Source of the DNA: a virus
Direction: 5' to 3' (one strand)
IMG/VR virus record: IMGVR_UViG_3300014720_000003
Coordinates: 64,001 to 128,000 of that record
Length of the DNA stretch: 64,000 nt
Shown here: piece after piece, positions 29,457 to 37,137 of the stretch
Layout: each line of letters begins with the position of its first letter
How positions within the stretch are numbered: position 1 is the stretch's first letter
The notes under the pieces: generated by a model
Seen by the model: only the letters and a program-made list of their open reading frames with translations
Told to the model about the DNA's origin: nothing
Database searches by the model: none
Translations under genes and position numbers: made by a program

Positions 29457-29830
29457 ATGGTTTTTGGTCCTTTCTTTATTCTTGACATTCCTTTTGGTAG
29501 GGGTTTTTCCGACTGTTTTTCTTTGTAATCATTATGTTTGGAGTATAATGATGTTTTTTGATCATCGCTCATTCTGTCTCTATTTCTATTAGCTAAATCT
29601 CCTATGGTTTTTAGTTCACTATCTGATTTTCTTACCGATGCTGATTGTGTGGCTAAATCAAGCATATAATCTCTGTGTGTATCCGTATTTTTACAGAATG
29701 TGCATTTGGGTGATTGCTCGTAATCTTTGATGTAAAAAAACAACTCGAACTGTTTATGACAATGATTACAATGATATGAATAGGTTGGCATATCTACACA
29801 ATATAAGAATCTGGTAAATAGATAGACCAT
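29444..29830 (-). CDS. FmdB-like zinc-ribbon protein (true start probably MPTYSY)
   Basis: MPTYSYHCNHC..FE...PKCTFC. Confidence 0.75.
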   Translation of the reverse strand: MVYLFTRFLYCVDMPTYSYHCNHCHKQFELFFYIKDYEQSPKCTFCKNTDTHRDYMLDLATQSASVRKSDSELKTIGDLANRNRDRMSDDQKTSLYSKHNDYKEKQSEKPLPKGMSRIKKGPKTIWPN

Positions 29831-30378
29831 TCTGGTGGTAGGTCTGTTTTTATTTTAGATAGGTGGTACGAGATTGGCAAGTATTTGGGACTCTTATTTG
29901 GCTTGAATGGTAGCCCTAATAAGGACATATGCGCCTGTTTGGGGGTTCGGTTTCCCTTTTTACGATTACATGATATGCAAGATGTTACAATATTGGTCCA
30001 ACAAGTGGGAGAACCATTATCGTTATTCCATATAGATTTCGGAATCACATGATCATAAGTTAATTCATTGTATGTAAAAACACTAGAACAATATTGACAC
30101 GTAAAATTATCTCGTATAAAAATGTTCTTACGAGAGAATGTAACATTTTGTTTATCTATTTTAAAGTATCGTTTGGTCCTAGCAACTGCTGGTACTGGAT
30201 ATTTTCTGTTGTTTGTTCCATTTATATGATCATCTTTATAGAAATCAATCACATCAATACCATACCTTGGATTGTGTTCGTATTTCATATACCAAACTAT
30301 AGCTTTTTGCCAATCAATAATTGATAATGGGCTATAATCAGCATTGAGCAGTAGACATTTACTGTTTTTTAGTCTCAT
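29794..30378 (-). CDS. HNH endonuclease (McrA-like)
   Basis: LLLNADYSPL, RDNFTCQYC, LTYDHVIPKS, WTNIVTSC.SCNRKKG. Confidence 0.9.
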   Translation of the reverse strand: MRLKNSKCLLLNADYSPLSIIDWQKAIVWYMKYEHNPRYGIDVIDFYKDDHINGTNNRKYPVPAVARTKRYFKIDKQNVTFSRKNIFIRDNFTCQYCSSVFTYNELTYDHVIPKSIWNNDNGSPTCWTNIVTSCISCNRKKGNRTPKQAHMSLLGLPFKPNKSPKYLPISYHLSKIKTDLPPEWSIYLPDSYIV

Positions 30379-31090
30379 CTTCTAAAAACTCTAATCTTAG
30401 TAGAATCTTAGCAATAATTGGATTTCTAACAATATCCCCATATTCTAGTCTGGAAAGTCCTATGCTGTCCACACCATCGAGGGCTTTAATTAAATCCAAA
30501 AATCCGCCACGGAAATTCCTTGGCAAATCAGACTGACTAATATCTCCTGTTAATACCATTTTACTGTTGTTTCCTATGCGTGTCAACAACATTTTTAATT
30601 GATCATACGAAGCATTCTGGCACTCATCTGCTACTATAAAGCTATTGTGAAAGTTTCGTCCTCTCATTAATCCCAAGGGGACTATCTCAATTTTATTATT
30701 AAGCTTTAATGCCGCATAATGACTCACAGGAATAAAATGCAATATTTCATCTAGTATTGGCAATAGGTAAGGATGTAATTTTTCCTCTGCTGTACCAGGA
30801 AGATATCCTATTTTCTCTCCGCTCTCTACTACTGGTCTGGTTATAATAATTTTTTTTATTTTATCATCTAATAGATATTCCAGAGCCATACCTATAGCAA
30901 TATGTGTTTTACCACTTCCAGCCACGCCCTGACAAAACGTGATAGTATTTTCTGCTACTGTTCTTATATAATCTTTTTGATTATCTGATCGTGGTCTTAA
31001 TCTATTACGATATAGTGGACCACTCGATTCAATATCGTTTGTAGCATCTATAACCTTAGACTTTCTCTTATCTTTGTTGTTCTTTCTCAA
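30359..31090 (-). CDS. phoH: PhoH-family ATPase
   Basis: GVAGSGKT, ITRPVVE, GYLPG, MRGRNF, DECQN, LTRIG, GDISQSD. Confidence 0.95.
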   Translation of the reverse strand: MRKNNKDKRKSKVIDATNDIESSGPLYRNRLRPRSDNQKDYIRTVAENTITFCQGVAGSGKTHIAIGMALEYLLDDKIKKIIITRPVVESGEKIGYLPGTAEEKLHPYLLPILDEILHFIPVSHYAALKLNNKIEIVPLGLMRGRNFHNSFIVADECQNASYDQLKMLLTRIGNNSKMVLTGDISQSDLPRNFRGGFLDLIKALDGVDSIGLSRLEYGDIVRNPIIAKILLRLEFLEDETKKQ

Positions 31091-31114
31091 TGGGATACCT
31101 CGCTGAAAATGGGA

Positions 31115-34100
31115 TTAAATTAAGCAAGCGCCGCCGGCACAACTAATCTCTTCTATTCCAGCAGTATTATCCTCTGTTTCTAATAGTTGTGTATAATCAA
31201 CCTTTTTATAGCTGTCATATAAATCACAATATATTTTCCAGTTATAAACATCCTTCATACAGTAAGTCAATCTCCTTACATCCCCATTAAAATATTTACC
31301 AGCAAAATTCTTCATCTTTGTGGTGAATAATAGCTTTTCCTTAGTGTCGTTTTCTTTAGCTTGATTCATATTCACATAATCACAAGCAGCCCAAAGATTA
31401 TTATCAAAAGCATTTAGTCCAAGTTCTATTAATCCAGAGCACCATAACGCAGCATCTCCGTATTCTTTTACTATTTCTCTGCTTGTGTAAACAGTGGTGA
31501 ACGGTGCTTGAGGGTAATCTTTATCTCCGCTTTGTGGAATTAAACTAATACCAGCAAAATATTTACGATTATCATAAATATATTTTGTTACCTGTTCCCA
31601 TTCATCTGGTTTTACTGTAACAGTATTACTAACATTATGACTAAGATAATCTTGAGTACATAATGATTTATTCTTACCAGAGTGTACCCAATTCTTTTGA
31701 GTATCCTTTACGATAGAGAGCATATCCACAGCGGGAAGTTGATTCTTGGTTTTGGCTCCGTCGGGAACTTCAATTGGAAATTTAACTACCTCATCAGTAT
31801 TATTTGCTGACCAGCGAGATTTTTCGCACGCTTGTGGGTTATAATTCTTAAAGTGCTGGTATGGTGCTTCTAAAACATTAGCCTGCACATGGCGTATATA
31901 GCGTTTAGCGTGATGAGGATGGATGCCAGAACTAGTCCCGAGCATACTGCTGCTTGTGCCCTCTGGTTTTAAACACGTTACTCTAGCAGCTTGATTAATA
32001 CCGAGTTTTTTAGCAAATTCTTTATTGGTTTCTATGGTCATTTTAGCACCAGCCTTTAGAACCTTTTCTGATAAAACTAGATCATATTTTTCCATAGTGC
32101 CAGTTAACGAAACGCCCAATAAAGATTCTCTTTCAAAGATGCGGCAACTAATATCGCCTAGATAATCTAACTTTGTAAAGCCTGCTTGTAATGTTCCTAT
32201 AATCGCAGCAGCTTTACATCTTTCATAAAAATCAGATTCATCCTCTATAGATGAACAATTAATAGTAGATAGATTACACCCTTGCCATCCACTCTTACCG
32301 CTCTCCTCATCAACAGGCCACATACCCACTTCCACACACCTTCGTGATGTTATGCCATTAACTATCATGGTGCGTCTACTATTTTCTGTTAAACAATAAA
32401 CGTCTTGCTTTCCGATGTAAGTTATTTTTTTTACAAATGAACTAAATCTATTCGTTAATCTAAATGTTTGCCTATCTTTAAGAACCTCCTTAATTCTATT
32501 TATGTCTTTTATATGCAAACTAGCAAAACCTATCAAATTATAACAATTATTTTGTCCACCAATAATAAGCCTATAACTAGTTTGTGTAGAATAATATTTA
32601 TTGTTTCTGTCGCCATCTGGCAAAAGCGCTTTACCTGCTTTTCTAGATATATTTATTCTGGCAAATACCCCAAGCTCCTGTAAAATTAATTGTATATCCA
32701 TCAATGCGCTTATGTTAACAGACGATAATCTCATACTTAGAGATTTTGATTTTTCATTATATTCAGAATGCCCATCGGAATAAAGCATTCCAGAAACAAA
32801 TCCAGCTTTAAAGTTTTTAGATGTTTTATGTATAAAACTAATATCGTCTTTGATGGACGGAATTCCTTTTGTGTTTAAATATTTATTTAGAGCGGTACTT
32901 TCTAGGGACCATTTTGGCTTTGATCCATAAATTTTATCTTCTAAACAAGAAAATTTTGGTTCAAGATTTTGATTATATGTCAATAAGTCTTTATCTAATT
33001 GGCTAATGAAGTATTTTACATAGGTTTCGGTTTCTGATATTTGAGACTCTAGTTCCGCCGCCGTACCCCAAAAATTTATTCTGCAAGAACTATATTTAGA
33101 AATAAAACAACCGTCTCCATGAATAAGACCAACTAAATAACCCAATTTAAAATCGTCGCTATTTTTATCAGAAGTATATGGTTCAGAGATTGGGATTAAG
33201 ATTTCATCTTCACTTGTTAGGTCTTTTAATTCCACCATTCCGTGTCTTGTTGCAAAATGATGGTTGCTTGTAGCTTTTACTTTTCTTCCACAAGTCAGTT
33301 CTAACTCATAAACGTCTCTATCAATGCCGGTTTTTCTGGCGTTAGAAGCTGTATTAATAATATTAGCGTTTGGAATATCCATATTAACAGCCCAGTGTTC
33401 CTGACCATCTTGCATATATCCAAATACACGACTGTCTTGCTCTATATCAAATGATTGTGTGTCTAAAAGATCTTTAAATTCAGTCCAGCCATGAGTTGTC
33501 AAAACTTTTGTGTCAATTGTTACGCACGGATTGAAAGTCATCTCTGTAGAATCGCTCCAAATAAATCCAGGTTCACCAAACTCTTTAACACTTTCCATTA
33601 AGGTTTGAAATTCTTCGTATGTGGTAGAATCTTTTAATAAAAGAGCAGAGTTGTTGCTTCGTGCTCTTTGGGGATTTTCCAGATACCAGTTACCAGTTTT
33701 AGCCTTGGCCATTTCTTCATCATCATGACTAAACAACGCTAAACTAGCAGATCGTCTAACCCCACCACTCAACACAGCATCACTACTGTGCATCACTATA
33801 TCATAAGCATCAATTGGTCGTAGTTTCTTTTGACCATTGGATACACAACGATCTAACAATACTCTTATTTTTTCTAATCCTTTAGCAAGAGGTTCGAATC
33901 CTGGGGCTTTTCCAACACCAGAACTAAGATTTGATCCTTGTGGACGAATATTACTATAATCAAATAGTATATGACAATTTTTGTATTGTTTAAATTCTTC
34001 TACTGGTTTACTAAAATAACTACTTAATAAGACTCCTAGAGCATCCGCCCACCCTTCTATGCTATCTTCTATAACATAAACAGTGCCTTTATCCTCTGGA

Positions 34101-34495
34101 GGATTGTGTTCCAGAGTTGGTAATTTGGAAACGTGGTGTTTTTGCACACTAAATCCTGTGCCACTACCACACAATAATAACCAAAAGCATTCTTGAAAAA
34201 ATCGTAATCTATCACAATAGGAACTTGTGCAATTATAGATTTTGGCGTGACGTTTTAGAATTGGTTCGCCACCAAATTGCAATCCTCTTTGTGAGCCAAG
34301 AACTTTTTTCTTATACATCATATCATATGCCCAATCAATATCTGTTGATATTCCTTTGTCGGCATACATAGAGTGCATCATATTTCGCACACGATCAACA
34401 GCTTCTTTCCAAGTTTCTCTGCGATTTTTATCTTCTAACCAACGAGCATATTTACTAACAAATGTATAATTCTGAAGTTCTTGAAGTGCTGACAT
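31115..34495 (-). CDS. nrdJ: class II (B12-dependent) ribonucleotide reductase, intein-containing
   Basis: RRETW.E, YNC, GGVRRSA, RARSNNS, GEPG, NPC|VE, CNL, KPEGT.S, C-terminal CAGGAC. Confidence 0.92.
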   Translation of the reverse strand: MSALQELQNYTFVSKYARWLEDKNRRETWKEAVDRVRNMMHSMYADKGISTDIDWAYDMMYKKKVLGSQRGLQFGGEPILKRHAKIYNCTSSYCDRLRFFQECFWLLLCGSGTGFSVQKHHVSKLPTLEHNPPEDKGTVYVIEDSIEGWADALGVLLSSYFSKPVEEFKQYKNCHILFDYSNIRPQGSNLSSGVGKAPGFEPLAKGLEKIRVLLDRCVSNGQKKLRPIDAYDIVMHSSDAVLSGGVRRSASLALFSHDDEEMAKAKTGNWYLENPQRARSNNSALLLKDSTTYEEFQTLMESVKEFGEPGFIWSDSTEMTFNPCVTIDTKVLTTHGWTEFKDLLDTQSFDIEQDSRVFGYMQDGQEHWAVNMDIPNANIINTASNARKTGIDRDVYELELTCGRKVKATSNHHFATRHGMVELKDLTSEDEILIPISEPYTSDKNSDDFKLGYLVGLIHGDGCFISKYSSCRINFWGTAAELESQISETETYVKYFISQLDKDLLTYNQNLEPKFSCLEDKIYGSKPKWSLESTALNKYLNTKGIPSIKDDISFIHKTSKNFKAGFVSGMLYSDGHSEYNEKSKSLSMRLSSVNISALMDIQLILQELGVFARINISRKAGKALLPDGDRNNKYYSTQTSYRLIIGGQNNCYNLIGFASLHIKDINRIKEVLKDRQTFRLTNRFSSFVKKITYIGKQDVYCLTENSRRTMIVNGITSRRCVEVGMWPVDEESGKSGWQGCNLSTINCSSIEDESDFYERCKAAAIIGTLQAGFTKLDYLGDISCRIFERESLLGVSLTGTMEKYDLVLSEKVLKAGAKMTIETNKEFAKKLGINQAARVTCLKPEGTSSSMLGTSSGIHPHHAKRYIRHVQANVLEAPYQHFKNYNPQACEKSRWSANNTDEVVKFPIEVPDGAKTKNQLPAVDMLSIVKDTQKNWVHSGKNKSLCTQDYLSHNVSNTVTVKPDEWEQVTKYIYDNRKYFAGISLIPQSGDKDYPQAPFTTVYTSREIVKEYGDAALWCSGLIELGLNAFDNNLWAACDYVNMNQAKENDTKEKLLFTTKMKNFAGKYFNGDVRRLTYCMKDVYNWKIYCDLYDSYKKVDYTQLLETEDNTAGIEEISCAGGACLI
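32339..33526 (-). mobile_element. 396-aa intein with dodecapeptide (LAGLIDADG) homing endonuclease; atypical Arg C-terminus
   Basis: Block A CVTIDTKVLT, block B VKATSNH, endonuclease motifs LVGLIHGDG and VSGMLYSDG, block F DVYCLT, block G NGITSRR/C. Removal restores FNPCVEVG. Confidence 0.92.
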
Positions 34496-34496
34496 C

Positions 34497-34637
34497 TTAT
34501 CTCCTATTGAGCATTATTAACGAAAATATCCCCAACACTACAACACTTTCAAATGATTGTTGTTGCATATGGGGGTTCTGAGTTATGAGACTATAAACAT
34601 AAATACCTAATGAAACATAAAACGATATTAATATCAT
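34497..34637 (-). CDS. 46-aa hydrophobic (two-TM) microprotein not in track
   Basis: Manual translation MILISFYVSLGIYVYSLITQNPHMQQQSFESVVVLGIFSLIMLNRR; ATGA overlap, fills the gap before nrdJ. Confidence 0.6.
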   Translation of the reverse strand: MILISFYVSLGIYVYSLITQNPHMQQQSFESVVVLGIFSLIMLNRR

Positions 34638-35104
34638 AATACACCGCACAGTTGTTTCAGCCACGAAAGATCTGGTTCAACATATTCTATTTCTATACCA
34701 CTCATACTAACAAAAGTATCAAATATTTTTTGAGCTTTTTCATCAAAAAGGTGTGTGCCGTGATTGTTTGTCATAACTACTTTTCTAACTCCTTCTTGCC
34801 ATAGGGCCATAATGCAATCGTTACACGATTGACCAGTAACATATGCTATCCCATTTTCTGGTCGTATAGTACAATTAGATAGAGCATTACGTTCAGCGTG
34901 AATCATCCACGGATATTTGTCTGGTCTACTGTTTGGTAATAGGGTATCATCCAAACCGCGAGGAAATCCGTTGTATCCTAATCCTAAAATCCTATTATTA
35001 GAATCTGTGATTACACAACCGTGTTGTGTTTGAACATCATGGCTACGTTGAGAAACAACTTTAGCCAATCCTAAAAAATAATCTGTCCAGATGGGTCTGC
35101 TCAT
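34634..35104 (-). CDS. dCMP deaminase
   Basis: GYNGFPRG, HAERNAL, SCNDC. Confidence 0.93.
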   Translation of the reverse strand: MSRPIWTDYFLGLAKVVSQRSHDVQTQHGCVITDSNNRILGLGYNGFPRGLDDTLLPNSRPDKYPWMIHAERNALSNCTIRPENGIAYVTGQSCNDCIMALWQEGVRKVVMTNNHGTHLFDEKAQKIFDTFVSMSGIEIEYVEPDLSWLKQLCGVL

Positions 35105-36075: not shown

Positions 36076-36214
36076 TTCGCTTTCTCCATCGTGGTCTTGG
36101 TTTGGGAGTATCATCACCCTTTGGACTTGGACTCCACAATTTAATAATCTTGTATAGAAAATCCAAGAACATTTGAATAGCACGACCTAATGATATTCTA
36201 TCAATGAGTTTCAT
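36068..36214 (-). CDS. 48-aa amphipathic/basic microprotein not in track
   Basis: Manual translation MKLIDRISLGRAIQMFLDFLYKIIKLWSPSPKGDDTPKPRPRWRKRNE; overlaps both neighbours. Confidence 0.65.
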   Translation of the reverse strand: MKLIDRISLGRAIQMFLDFLYKIIKLWSPSPKGDDTPKPRPRWRKRNE

Positions 36215-37137
36215 AAGTATTTCTCGAAATCATAGGATGGAAGTTTTTGAACAGGAAAACCATCAAAATTACTAAAAGCATAACTACCATTTTGAGCCAA
36301 CATTTGACCAGCAACATCGGATCGAATTAAAAATGAGCCGTCTGGAATTGGACCCCATTCTGGATGACCACCATCATTCCACTTACCCCAACTATTTTGC
36401 ACAAGAAACAATGGTTCGCTTCCAGTATCATCACATGCTATCCAAGCCATACAATGAGCCCAACTACCACTAACATTAGTTACACCGTTCTTATCTCGTT
36501 TGTTACTAAAGCCAAAACTAGAGCATACGGCTAATCCATAACCATTAGCCAGAGCGTCTCGTGCTTCATCTACTGTGCGTACCAAACTTACTGTTTTTAT
36601 TTGATGATCATTGGCCAGATCTATTACTTTATCTGGTAATCCTCGACCACCCCAGTTTGTGCCAATAGTACTATTATATTTGGTAAAATCGGCTATTCCC
36701 TTGTAATCTTTACGAACCAGAATGCCACCATTTTTACTCACAAATTCGGCCGCTCTAGCACAACTCATTCCCTGACCACTATGGCCTCTAGCACCATAAA
36801 TAGCTTCTGTTGCGCCTCGTGCTACCCAACCCTCTCTTTGTTTATGAATATCAATCTCTACTGCTCGACTAACATCACACGCATTTCGTGTTCCGTGTGA
36901 AACACAATCTCCAACTGTTTGTCTTTCGTTATAGGGACTCTTATCAAACTTTAACACACTTTTGTACGGAGTACTTAGTTTGCCCTTACCACTATTCTTA
37001 ATCTTTCTTGCTCCATCAGAGAAATAACCATATTTTGAATGTTCTAATAGTTGTTCATAAATATGTTGTTCAAATAAACAACCAGAGAATCCTTTTTTAT
37101 ATAATTGATAAAGATCATTAGGACTAAATTTTGGCAT
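36211..37137 (-). CDS. papain-like (C1A) cysteine peptidase
   Basis: QTVGDCVSH (Gln, Cys), WAHCM (His), VQNSWG (Asn). Confidence 0.85.
   Translation of the reverse strand: MPKFSPNDLYQLYKKGFSGCLFEQHIYEQLLEHSKYGYFSDGARKIKNSGKGKLSTPYKSVLKFDKSPYNERQTVGDCVSHGTRNACDVSRAVEIDIHKQREGWVARGATEAIYGARGHSGQGMSCARAAEFVSKNGGILVRKDYKGIADFTKYNSTIGTNWGGRGLPDKVIDLANDHQIKTVSLVRTVDEARDALANGYGLAVCSSFGFSNKRDKNGVTNVSGSWAHCMAWIACDDTGSEPLFLVQNSWGKWNDGGHPEWGPIPDGSFLIRSDVAGQMLAQNGSYAFSNFDGFPVQKLPSYDFEKYL

Follow-up and report, generated by a model that had tools for sequence, protein, structure and literature searches.

An arginine-terminated intein in a phage ribonucleotide reductase as a probable variant of class 1 splicing

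Can an intein whose last residue is arginine still splice? The question is raised by a ribonucleotide reductase (RNR) gene in IMG/VR virus record IMGVR_UViG_3300014720_000003, of which positions 64,001 to 128,000 were analyzed (64,000 nucleotides (nt), hereafter the window). The RNR precursor gene (31115..34495) is a single uninterrupted open reading frame (ORF) of 1126 amino acids (aa) plus stop on the minus strand, as are all window features given below, and a 396-codon intein (32339..33526) is inserted in it between NP and CVE. The terminal residues reported for inteins in the review PMC4031507 are Asn, Gln, Asp, and Glu only. Judged from the comparisons described below, the intein is probably a splicing-competent class 1 variant, live and mobile, from a phage-borne, Arg-ending lineage in which the branched intermediate is resolved without Asn, Gln, or Asp.

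The intein, its ending, and its insertion site

The insert consists of a Hint splicing domain that is interrupted by a LAGLIDADG homing endonuclease (Pfam Intein_splicing, E 2.9e-11; LAGLIDADG_3, E 2.8e-12). An AlphaFold2 model (predicted local distance difference test score, pLDDT, 86.8; predicted template modeling score, pTM, 0.88) contained the Hint domain and a double-motif endonuclease, and was matched best by Foldseek to the TliVMA intein 7qss (E 5.4e-16), PI-PfuI, and PI-SceI, with a further match to I-DmoI. Block A (CVTIDTKVLTTHG; 33488..33526) begins with Cys1 (TGC, 33524-33526), which is preceded by a Pro codon (CCG). Block B (GRKVKATSNHHFAT; 33248..33289) carries TSNH at residues 86-89, and its Thr86 and His89 (B:7 and B:10 in a block numbering that places Arg396 at G:7) are the machinery of the N-S acyl shift. 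LAGLIDADG motif 1 (LGYLVGLIHGDGC; 33107..33145, residues 128-140) includes Asp138 and motif 2 (KAGFVSGMLYSDGH; 32768..32809, residues 240-253) includes Asp251; motifs, acidic residues, and fold are those of a double-motif LAGLIDADG homing endonuclease, predicted to be active.

At the C-terminal end, block F (DVYCLTENSRRTMIVNG; 32354..32404, residues 375-391) contains Cys378 at F:4, Glu381, and Arg385, and block G (ITSRR; 32339..32353, residues 392-396) closes the intein with Arg395 (CGA, 32342-32344) and Arg396 (AGG, 32339-32341). The end reads ...NGITSRR^C (a caret marks the junction), with codons CGA AGG TGT. The Cys+1 codon (TGT, 32336..32338) encodes the first C-extein residue, which lies inside an N-P-C-x-E motif and is followed by VEVGM. 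When aligned to the Npu DnaB mini-intein 4o1r, DVYCLT was placed over VFDLT (i.e., Asp to Cys at F:4), the second Arg of SRRT (Arg385) over the block-F His, and, with the alignment extended by eye, SRR over VHN. In place of the usual block F Asp (F:4), block-F His, and penultimate His, the intein carries Cys378, Arg385, and Arg395.

An original prediction, made from the sequence, had held that the terminal residue and both His positions are Arg, which the 4o1r alignment bore out, partly through its by-eye extension. The insertion, Cys1, TSNH, both LAGLIDADG motifs, DVYCLT, and the CGA AGG TGT end, which it had also called, were all found in place. It did not include the Cys at F:4 or the co-variation of Glu381 and Arg385 with the terminal Arg. 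Block-F and block-G His are described in PMC7765530 as activating Asn and polarizing the scissile bond, and the penultimate His, according to PMC4031507, is dispensable in some inteins. As for the features of class 1 inteins, Cys1, the block B Thr-x-x-His, and Cys+1 are present, and a C-terminal Asn, Gln, Asp, or Glu is not, the terminal residue being Arg396 (AGG).

Logan contigs (no raw reads) from four lake metagenome runs were aligned to window positions 31900-34000. In contigs from runs X3 and X5, position 32336 is linked directly to 33525 and exactly 1188 bases are missing, with a 3-base ambiguity in the join because the Cys codon is repeated at both junctions. The X5 contig shows 1+13 differences in 584 nt (roughly 98% identical), and an X3 contig of greater divergence leaves out 1195 bases and has 7 in their place, for the same net 1188. 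These contigs are empty alleles that read NP-C-VE. By sequence, by fold, and by its precise absence from the empty alleles, the insert is an intein. In run X1 (possibly the source sample), a 13,122-nt contig at depth 33.1 matched the window with 0 differences and covered the RR codons, and a minor contig (depth 4.3) departed from the window at 32338 into a sequence ending ...FDNDSVYVHN (hand translation). The same ...VYVHN^C end belongs to a canonical intein of proteins P0035-P0041, which occupies the same NP^C site, has the same architecture, is present in the same lake sample, and is flanked by exteins identical or nearly identical to those of the window (IWSDSTEMTFNP ... CVEVGMWPVDEES). That intein is 28-30% identical to the window intein and has the textbook set of F:4 Asp, block-F His, and His-Asn. 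One site thus occurs in three natural states, namely empty, with a His-Asn intein, and with an Arg-Arg intein.

The X1 contig was the only record listed across 32336-32347, and this reliance on contigs, with the sole full-length record possibly from the source sample, would favor a sequencing or assembly artifact at the junction. However, the intein of locus L008, which comes from another sample and has 89% aa identity, carries the identical TCA CGA AGG TGT, and the Arg ending recurs, across many sources, in 66 cluster representatives; P0002 belongs to a protein cluster with 9 member sequences on 2 contigs. An artifact, the probability of which we place close to nil, was ruled out by the family evidence and L008.

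The Arg-ending family, its selection, and its tree

A word-seeded protein search with residues 324-735 returned 45 proteins, of which the 44 with the NPC motif were aligned (P0046, which has no NPC, was omitted). Thirty-three of them (P0002-P0034) end in (S/A)(R/K/A)R^C, 7 in VHN^C, 3 in HN^C, and 1 in TGQ^C. Intein identity to the window ranges from 89% to about 32% in P0002-P0034 and goes down to about 26-32% in Arg-enders overall. A profile of nine Arg-enders (A2; the frameshifted L019 was omitted) was searched against 1.84 billion cluster representatives and matched 6248 proteins at E ≤ 1e-3 and 446 at E ≤ 1e-30. The best 150 of the profile matches were pooled with the word-seeded set; 184 pooled proteins extend to the C-terminus of the profile, with junctions that were readable in 180 and not in 4.

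Among these 180 junctions, Cys at F:4 is combined with a terminal Arg in 66, Gln in 31, and Asn in 23, and Asp at F:4 with Gln in 18 and Asn in 42; the combination of F:4 Asp with terminal Arg was found in 0 of the 180. The Arg-enders carry Cys at F:4 (66/66), Glu381 (66/66), and either Arg (65) or Lys (1) at position 385. For the signature comparison, 7 of the 180 were excluded for non-standard spacing, leaving 107 Asn/Gln-enders, in nearly all of which position 385 is Asn or His (Arg in 1). None of the Asn/Gln-enders has the full set of F:4 Cys, Glu381, and Arg/Lys385.

Residue conservation was compared between the groups. Cys1 is present in all 59 full-length Arg-enders (1.00), and conservation in Arg-enders is 0.98 for Thr86, 1.00 for His89, and 0.97 for each of Asp138 and Asp251; Cys1, Thr86, His89, and both endonuclease Asp are conserved in the other group alike. 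Residues conserved in Arg-enders only are Leu9, Ile28, Glu43, Trp45, Ala92, Met97, and Leu280. Of these, Glu43 (0.92) and Trp45 (0.97) fall in a segment (33392..33400, residues 43-45) that came out of this comparison and is a gap in about 70-77% of the Asn/Gln-ending relatives; Glu43-x-Trp45 may be part of an altered active site.

The terminal codon is AGA or AGG in all 13 of the window and 12 IMG/VR loci, and in 18 Arg-ender metagenome loci it is AGA (11), AGG (3), or CGA (4), for totals of AGA 20, AGG 7, and CGA 4 across the window and 30 loci (some contigs are in both collections). A nucleotide-level constraint, under which the codon would always be AGR, was dropped on the four metagenome loci with CGA. 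Both Arg codon families are therefore used, and selection on the terminal Arg appears from these codons to act at the amino acid level.

Ratios of nonsynonymous to synonymous divergence (dN/dS) rest on two close pairs, dS being saturated in most other comparisons. Between the window and L008 (89%), dN/dS is 0.097 in the Hint-N lobe, 0.086 in the endonuclease, and 0.071 in the Hint-C lobe. The same comparison gave a dS of about 0.6 in the intein and of at least 1.9 in the exteins, for which dN/dS is 0.03-0.07 (C-extein 0.032). From this difference in dS, the intein is younger than the host-gene divergence and has moved, as expected under homing. The second pair, L013 and L015, gave dN/dS of 0.03-0.09; a C-extein value of 0.64 for that pair was discarded as an alignment artifact from a second insertion.

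Extein starts beside the Arg-enders are CGE (20), CVE (15), CFE (14), CAE (5), CYE (2), and CHE, CFQ, and CSE (1 each). These at least eight extein contexts point to repeated moves between RNR lineages in which the ending was kept. According to the original prediction, a singleton among close homologs that all end in N/Q would speak against function, and a diverged family that keeps Arg under purifying selection would speak for it. The former is not the case and the latter is what was found (66 of 180 relatives ending in Arg; codons AGA/AGG/CGA; dN/dS 0.07-0.10). Of the two alternatives it had offered, a non-canonical class fits the family evidence, and a recently dead element is unlikely because a diverged family keeps its terminal Arg under purifying selection.

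A tree of 130 full-length inteins was built with FastTree after the last two residues had been removed (50 of the 180 were not full-length and were excluded). A split with support 99 separates 63 rows (59 Arg-enders plus P0071, P0082, P0083, and P0087) from 67 Gln/Asn-enders. The terminal-residue label changes 4 times on this tree, as opposed to a mean of 42.9 for shuffled labels. The nearest tree relatives of the Arg-enders are same-site RNR inteins ending in ...TGQ^C or ...TGN^C. The nested exceptions end in ...TRQ^C (P0071) or ...N^C (P0082, P0083, and P0087), lie behind starred branches, and have His or Asn at position 385; it is consequently not strictly true of the clade, as sampled here, that it always ends in arginine. 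All 4 independent pairs that differ in the terminal residue also differ at position 385 (sign test, p 0.125). The nested Asn/Gln-enders and these paired changes suggest that the Arg position exchanges with cyclizing residues on the same scaffold. We infer that the Arg ending arose once, on a scaffold that already carried F:4 Cys and lacked the penultimate His, and that a few members later went back to Asn or Gln; on this unrooted tree, such a direction of change is the probable one.

Resolution of the branch and competing explanations

With Cys1, the block B Thr/His, and Cys+1 all retained, the first two steps of splicing would be standard, with the N-S shift occurring at Cys1 via Thr86/His89 before the N-extein is transferred to Cys+1. 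In the third step, the Arg396-Cys+1 bond would have to be cut in another way than by Asn, Gln, or Asp cyclization, which is not usable because the terminal residue is Arg. The co-evolved Cys378, Glu381, Arg385, and Arg396 would replace the usual Asp, His, and His-Asn. In the preferred version, the N-epsilon of Arg396 attacks its own backbone carbonyl to form a six-membered delta-lactam, which would free Cys+1 for ligation. The ring would be six-membered because the Arg N-epsilon follows C-delta, the same atom position as the Gln amide N, and terminal Gln cyclizes to a six-membered glutarimide. Activated arginine is known from peptide chemistry to form delta-lactams. Glu381 and Arg385 would deprotonate the guanidinium or depress its pKa, or polarize the carbonyl. 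Arginine cyclization, helped by Glu381/Arg385 and the F:4 Cys, is put forward tentatively as the likeliest single mechanism, at a probability well below even. Two second choices are conceivable: attack of Cys378 on the Arg396 carbonyl, with a thioester formed as in a protease, or direct hydrolysis by a water molecule that Glu381 activates. Homing by the LAGLIDADG domain would then carry the element into empty RNR alleles.

Several points weigh against splicing competence and against this chemistry. All of the evidence on splicing is comparative, and the samples listed as carrying the sequence included none of RNA. Neither F:4 Cys, found in 54 of 114 Asn/Gln-enders, nor Glu381, at 0.39 among non-Arg-enders, is specific to Arg-enders in the pooled sequences. 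The co-variation test comprises four independent pairs, which is too few for significance, and the closeness of Arg396, Arg385, Glu381, and Cys378 was inferred from block positions only. Guanidinium is a very poor nucleophile with a very high pKa, and we know of no enzyme precedent for peptide-bond cleavage by Arg cyclization. One Arg-ender, L019 (3001-4192; 26% identity; TARR^CGEIPL), is frameshifted in the endonuclease region (frame 0 to 3897, frame 1 from 3722), through either decay of the copy or misassembly. The lineage was not found in two scans of 185,579 prokaryote species genomes: 12 stretches from a peptide-pattern scan were not confirmed, and L040, the only stretch from a DNA signature pattern, was a chance match with no intein-like frame. 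A tblastn search of the intein against 50,697 isolated phage records matched 278 records (best 29% identity) and contained no close relative, although a low-identity Arg-ender is possible there, the C-terminal ends being unread. Finally, it cannot be argued that the RNR is essential and so must splice, as no host is known in which it is indispensable; a phage may do without its RNR, and phages can live on host deoxynucleoside triphosphates (dNTPs).

Some of these points would suit a splicing-dead selfish element, which its endonuclease drives even though the RNR is inactivated, the host supplying dNTPs. The lineage is seen in phage and metagenome contigs only and in none of the prokaryote genomes scanned, empty alleles coexist, the endonuclease catalytic Asp are conserved at 0.97, the residue for the known chemistry is missing, and L019 is frameshifted. 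Yet residues needed for splicing only (Cys1, Thr86, and His89, at 0.98-1.00) are conserved like the endonuclease, dN/dS is 0.07-0.10 in both Hint lobes, and all 66 cluster representatives keep the terminal Arg together with its partners despite synonymous codon turnover. The retrieved proteins span both exteins, which are strongly constrained (dN/dS 0.03-0.07), and the element persists in at least eight extein contexts. On this sequence record, such constraint on Cys1, Thr-x-x-His, and an invariant C-terminal set is not what an endonuclease-only parasite would show, and a dead element is considered unlikely.

Assisted resolution, in which the intein forms the branch and a host or phage factor acting in trans, such as a protease, cuts after Arg to release Cys+1, is given a somewhat smaller chance again. 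A terminal basic residue suits a trypsin-like specificity, and the penultimate residue is usually Arg (50 of the 59 full-length members). It can, however, also be A (4), K (2), or Q, V, or S (1 each), and is E in L034, so there is no dibasic site; the diverse extein types and sample sources would demand a universal factor, and the tight co-variation falls inside the intein. A conserved neighbor was not found in 1.5-4 kb flanks of 39 loci, which is a weak test. The one candidate helper, a 308-aa ORF upstream of the RNR gene (36211-37137) that looks papain-like by eye (Cys/His/Asn-Ser-Trp-Gly), had no Pfam or PHROG match and was rejected with one partial tblastn match among these loci.

Removal or recoding before the protein is made (an intron, ribosomal bypass, a frameshift restoring His-Asn, or non-standard decoding of the terminal codon) is regarded as very improbable. 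A shifted frame does read His-Asn just upstream of the junction in the window, but on inspection by eye this frame contains stops, is not conserved, and runs into TAG in L009, and it was set aside. No Rfam family was found in 30900-34700 at E up to 1, save a chance mir-287 microRNA match. The terminal Arg is encoded by AGA, AGG, and CGA, relatives have CGN Arg codons opposite the AGA at position 384, and ARAGORN found 0 tRNA genes in the window. The pattern of conservation is also that of a folded Hint domain. A class 1 variant that splices by its own residues remains the favored explanation.

Known systems, the host gene, and implications

The Arg-ender was compared with known intein types. 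Class 1 inteins that do not end in Asn (Chilo iridescent virus RNR and Pyrococcus abyssi Pol II, with Gln; others with Asp) resemble it in Cys1, the block B Thr/His, the +1 nucleophile, and a lost penultimate His, and differ, compared by description only, in that Arg is the terminal residue and occupies the block-F His position here. Class 3 inteins (mycobacteriophage, Deinococcus Snf2) share with it the F:4 Cys and a phage association, but lack a position-1 nucleophile and end in Asn, whereas the window intein has Cys1 and ends in Arg. The class 3 motif includes Trp at B:12 and Thr at G:5, for which the window intein has Phe91 and Ser394; by its sequence it is not class 3. In class 3, the F:4 Cys attacks the splice-junction bond (Tori et al. 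2010, as cited in PMC4031507). It is not a BIL domain either, given its Cys+1 and LAGLIDADG domain. BIL domains (type A or B) lack both a +1 nucleophile and a homing endonuclease.

The best isolated-phage matches were LAGLIDADG-containing inteins of RNR large subunits, in nrdE of Staphylococcus SPbeta-like phages and bnrdE of Bacillus phage SPbeta (SPBc2); these are class Ib RNRs, identity is 25-29%, and the alignment stops at residue 394 of 396. Full-text searches of literature that left out supplements and most subscription journals found no intein described as ending in Arg. In 10.1101/2025.01.02.630785, "non-canonical" refers to endonuclease architecture.

The virus record behind the window is 138,480 bp long, has direct terminal repeats, and is rated a complete phage genome; window G+C is 33%, and the provenance is lake-water metagenomes. 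The host protein is a class II (B12-type, RTPR-like) RNR, with Pfam RNR_Alpha above its cut-off, RNR-II_ins_dom slightly under (25.7 vs 27 bits), and a weak barrel match. The nearest solved RNR is Lactobacillus leichmannii RTPR 1l1l (HMMER, E 4.7e-26; the alignment does not include the junction). Phage RTPR genes without an intein matched at 46-48% identity in two pieces that flank the insert (tblastn). The N-extein (33527..34495) has 323 codons and ends ...EMTFNP, and the C-extein (31118..32338) has 407 codons and reads CVEVGMWP...GCNLSTIN...CAGGACLI. The N-P-C-x-E active-site motif was read from the translation, and Cys+1 is the putative thiyl-radical cysteine by analogy with this motif in L. 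leichmannii RTPR. One PF02867 match, the sole RNR large subunit, was found in the complete 138,480-bp record, and searches of the whole record found neither NrdD nor R2.

The RNR gene is flanked by a dCMP deaminase gene (34634-35104; Pfam E 2.2e-15) and followed by a PhoH-like ATPase gene (30359-31090; Pfam E 8.1e-67), a block of ordinary phage nucleotide metabolism. Directly downstream of the PhoH-like gene is a free-standing HNH endonuclease ORF (29794-30378; Pfam HNH, E 1.7e-11), a second nuclease of mobile-element type near the RNR intein.

Further insertions were observed in the RNR genes of relatives. The C-extein is fractured in L013 (4650-5800) and L014, where a short intein-like piece (...NHKLLTDKGWKLVKDL...) closes the frame, the next ORF is free-standing, 278 aa long, and GIY-YIG-like by eye at its start, and the RNR resumes in another frame; L015 is without this insert of roughly 1.28 kb. 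The arrangement resembles the split-intein "fractured genes" described in PMC2677866. Arg-ender RNRs P0020 and P0193 are longer (1374-1710 aa), with CVTGDTNLITK... replacing CNL after ...GYQF, as if another intein were inserted at the conserved Cys that comes next, about 20 residues beyond the first site. In P0007, P0010, P0011, and P0029, the NPC site is shifted inward by about 300 residues (to positions 618-682 in proteins of about 1420-1490 aa), which suggests another N-extein insertion, possibly an intein.

Intein finders and RNR marker-gene pipelines that expect His-Asn will mis-call Arg-ender inserts. The Arg-ender, its canonical sister intein, and the empty allele are all known for the same extein, which makes for a testable system. 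For protein engineering, the family could offer new splice-junction rules and perhaps control handles. If the proposed chemistry is true, arginine or a Cys/Glu set would act as a lyase or protease; in the former case, arginine would serve in nature as the intramolecular nucleophile that cleaves a peptide bond, which would add a fourth kind of chemistry at intein C-termini. For intein evolution, the step from Gln/Asn-enders may be traceable on one scaffold. Described protein splicing classes all end with cyclization of Asn (rarely Gln, Asp, or Glu), and a functional Arg-ending lineage, if true, would be another route by which the branched intermediate is resolved.

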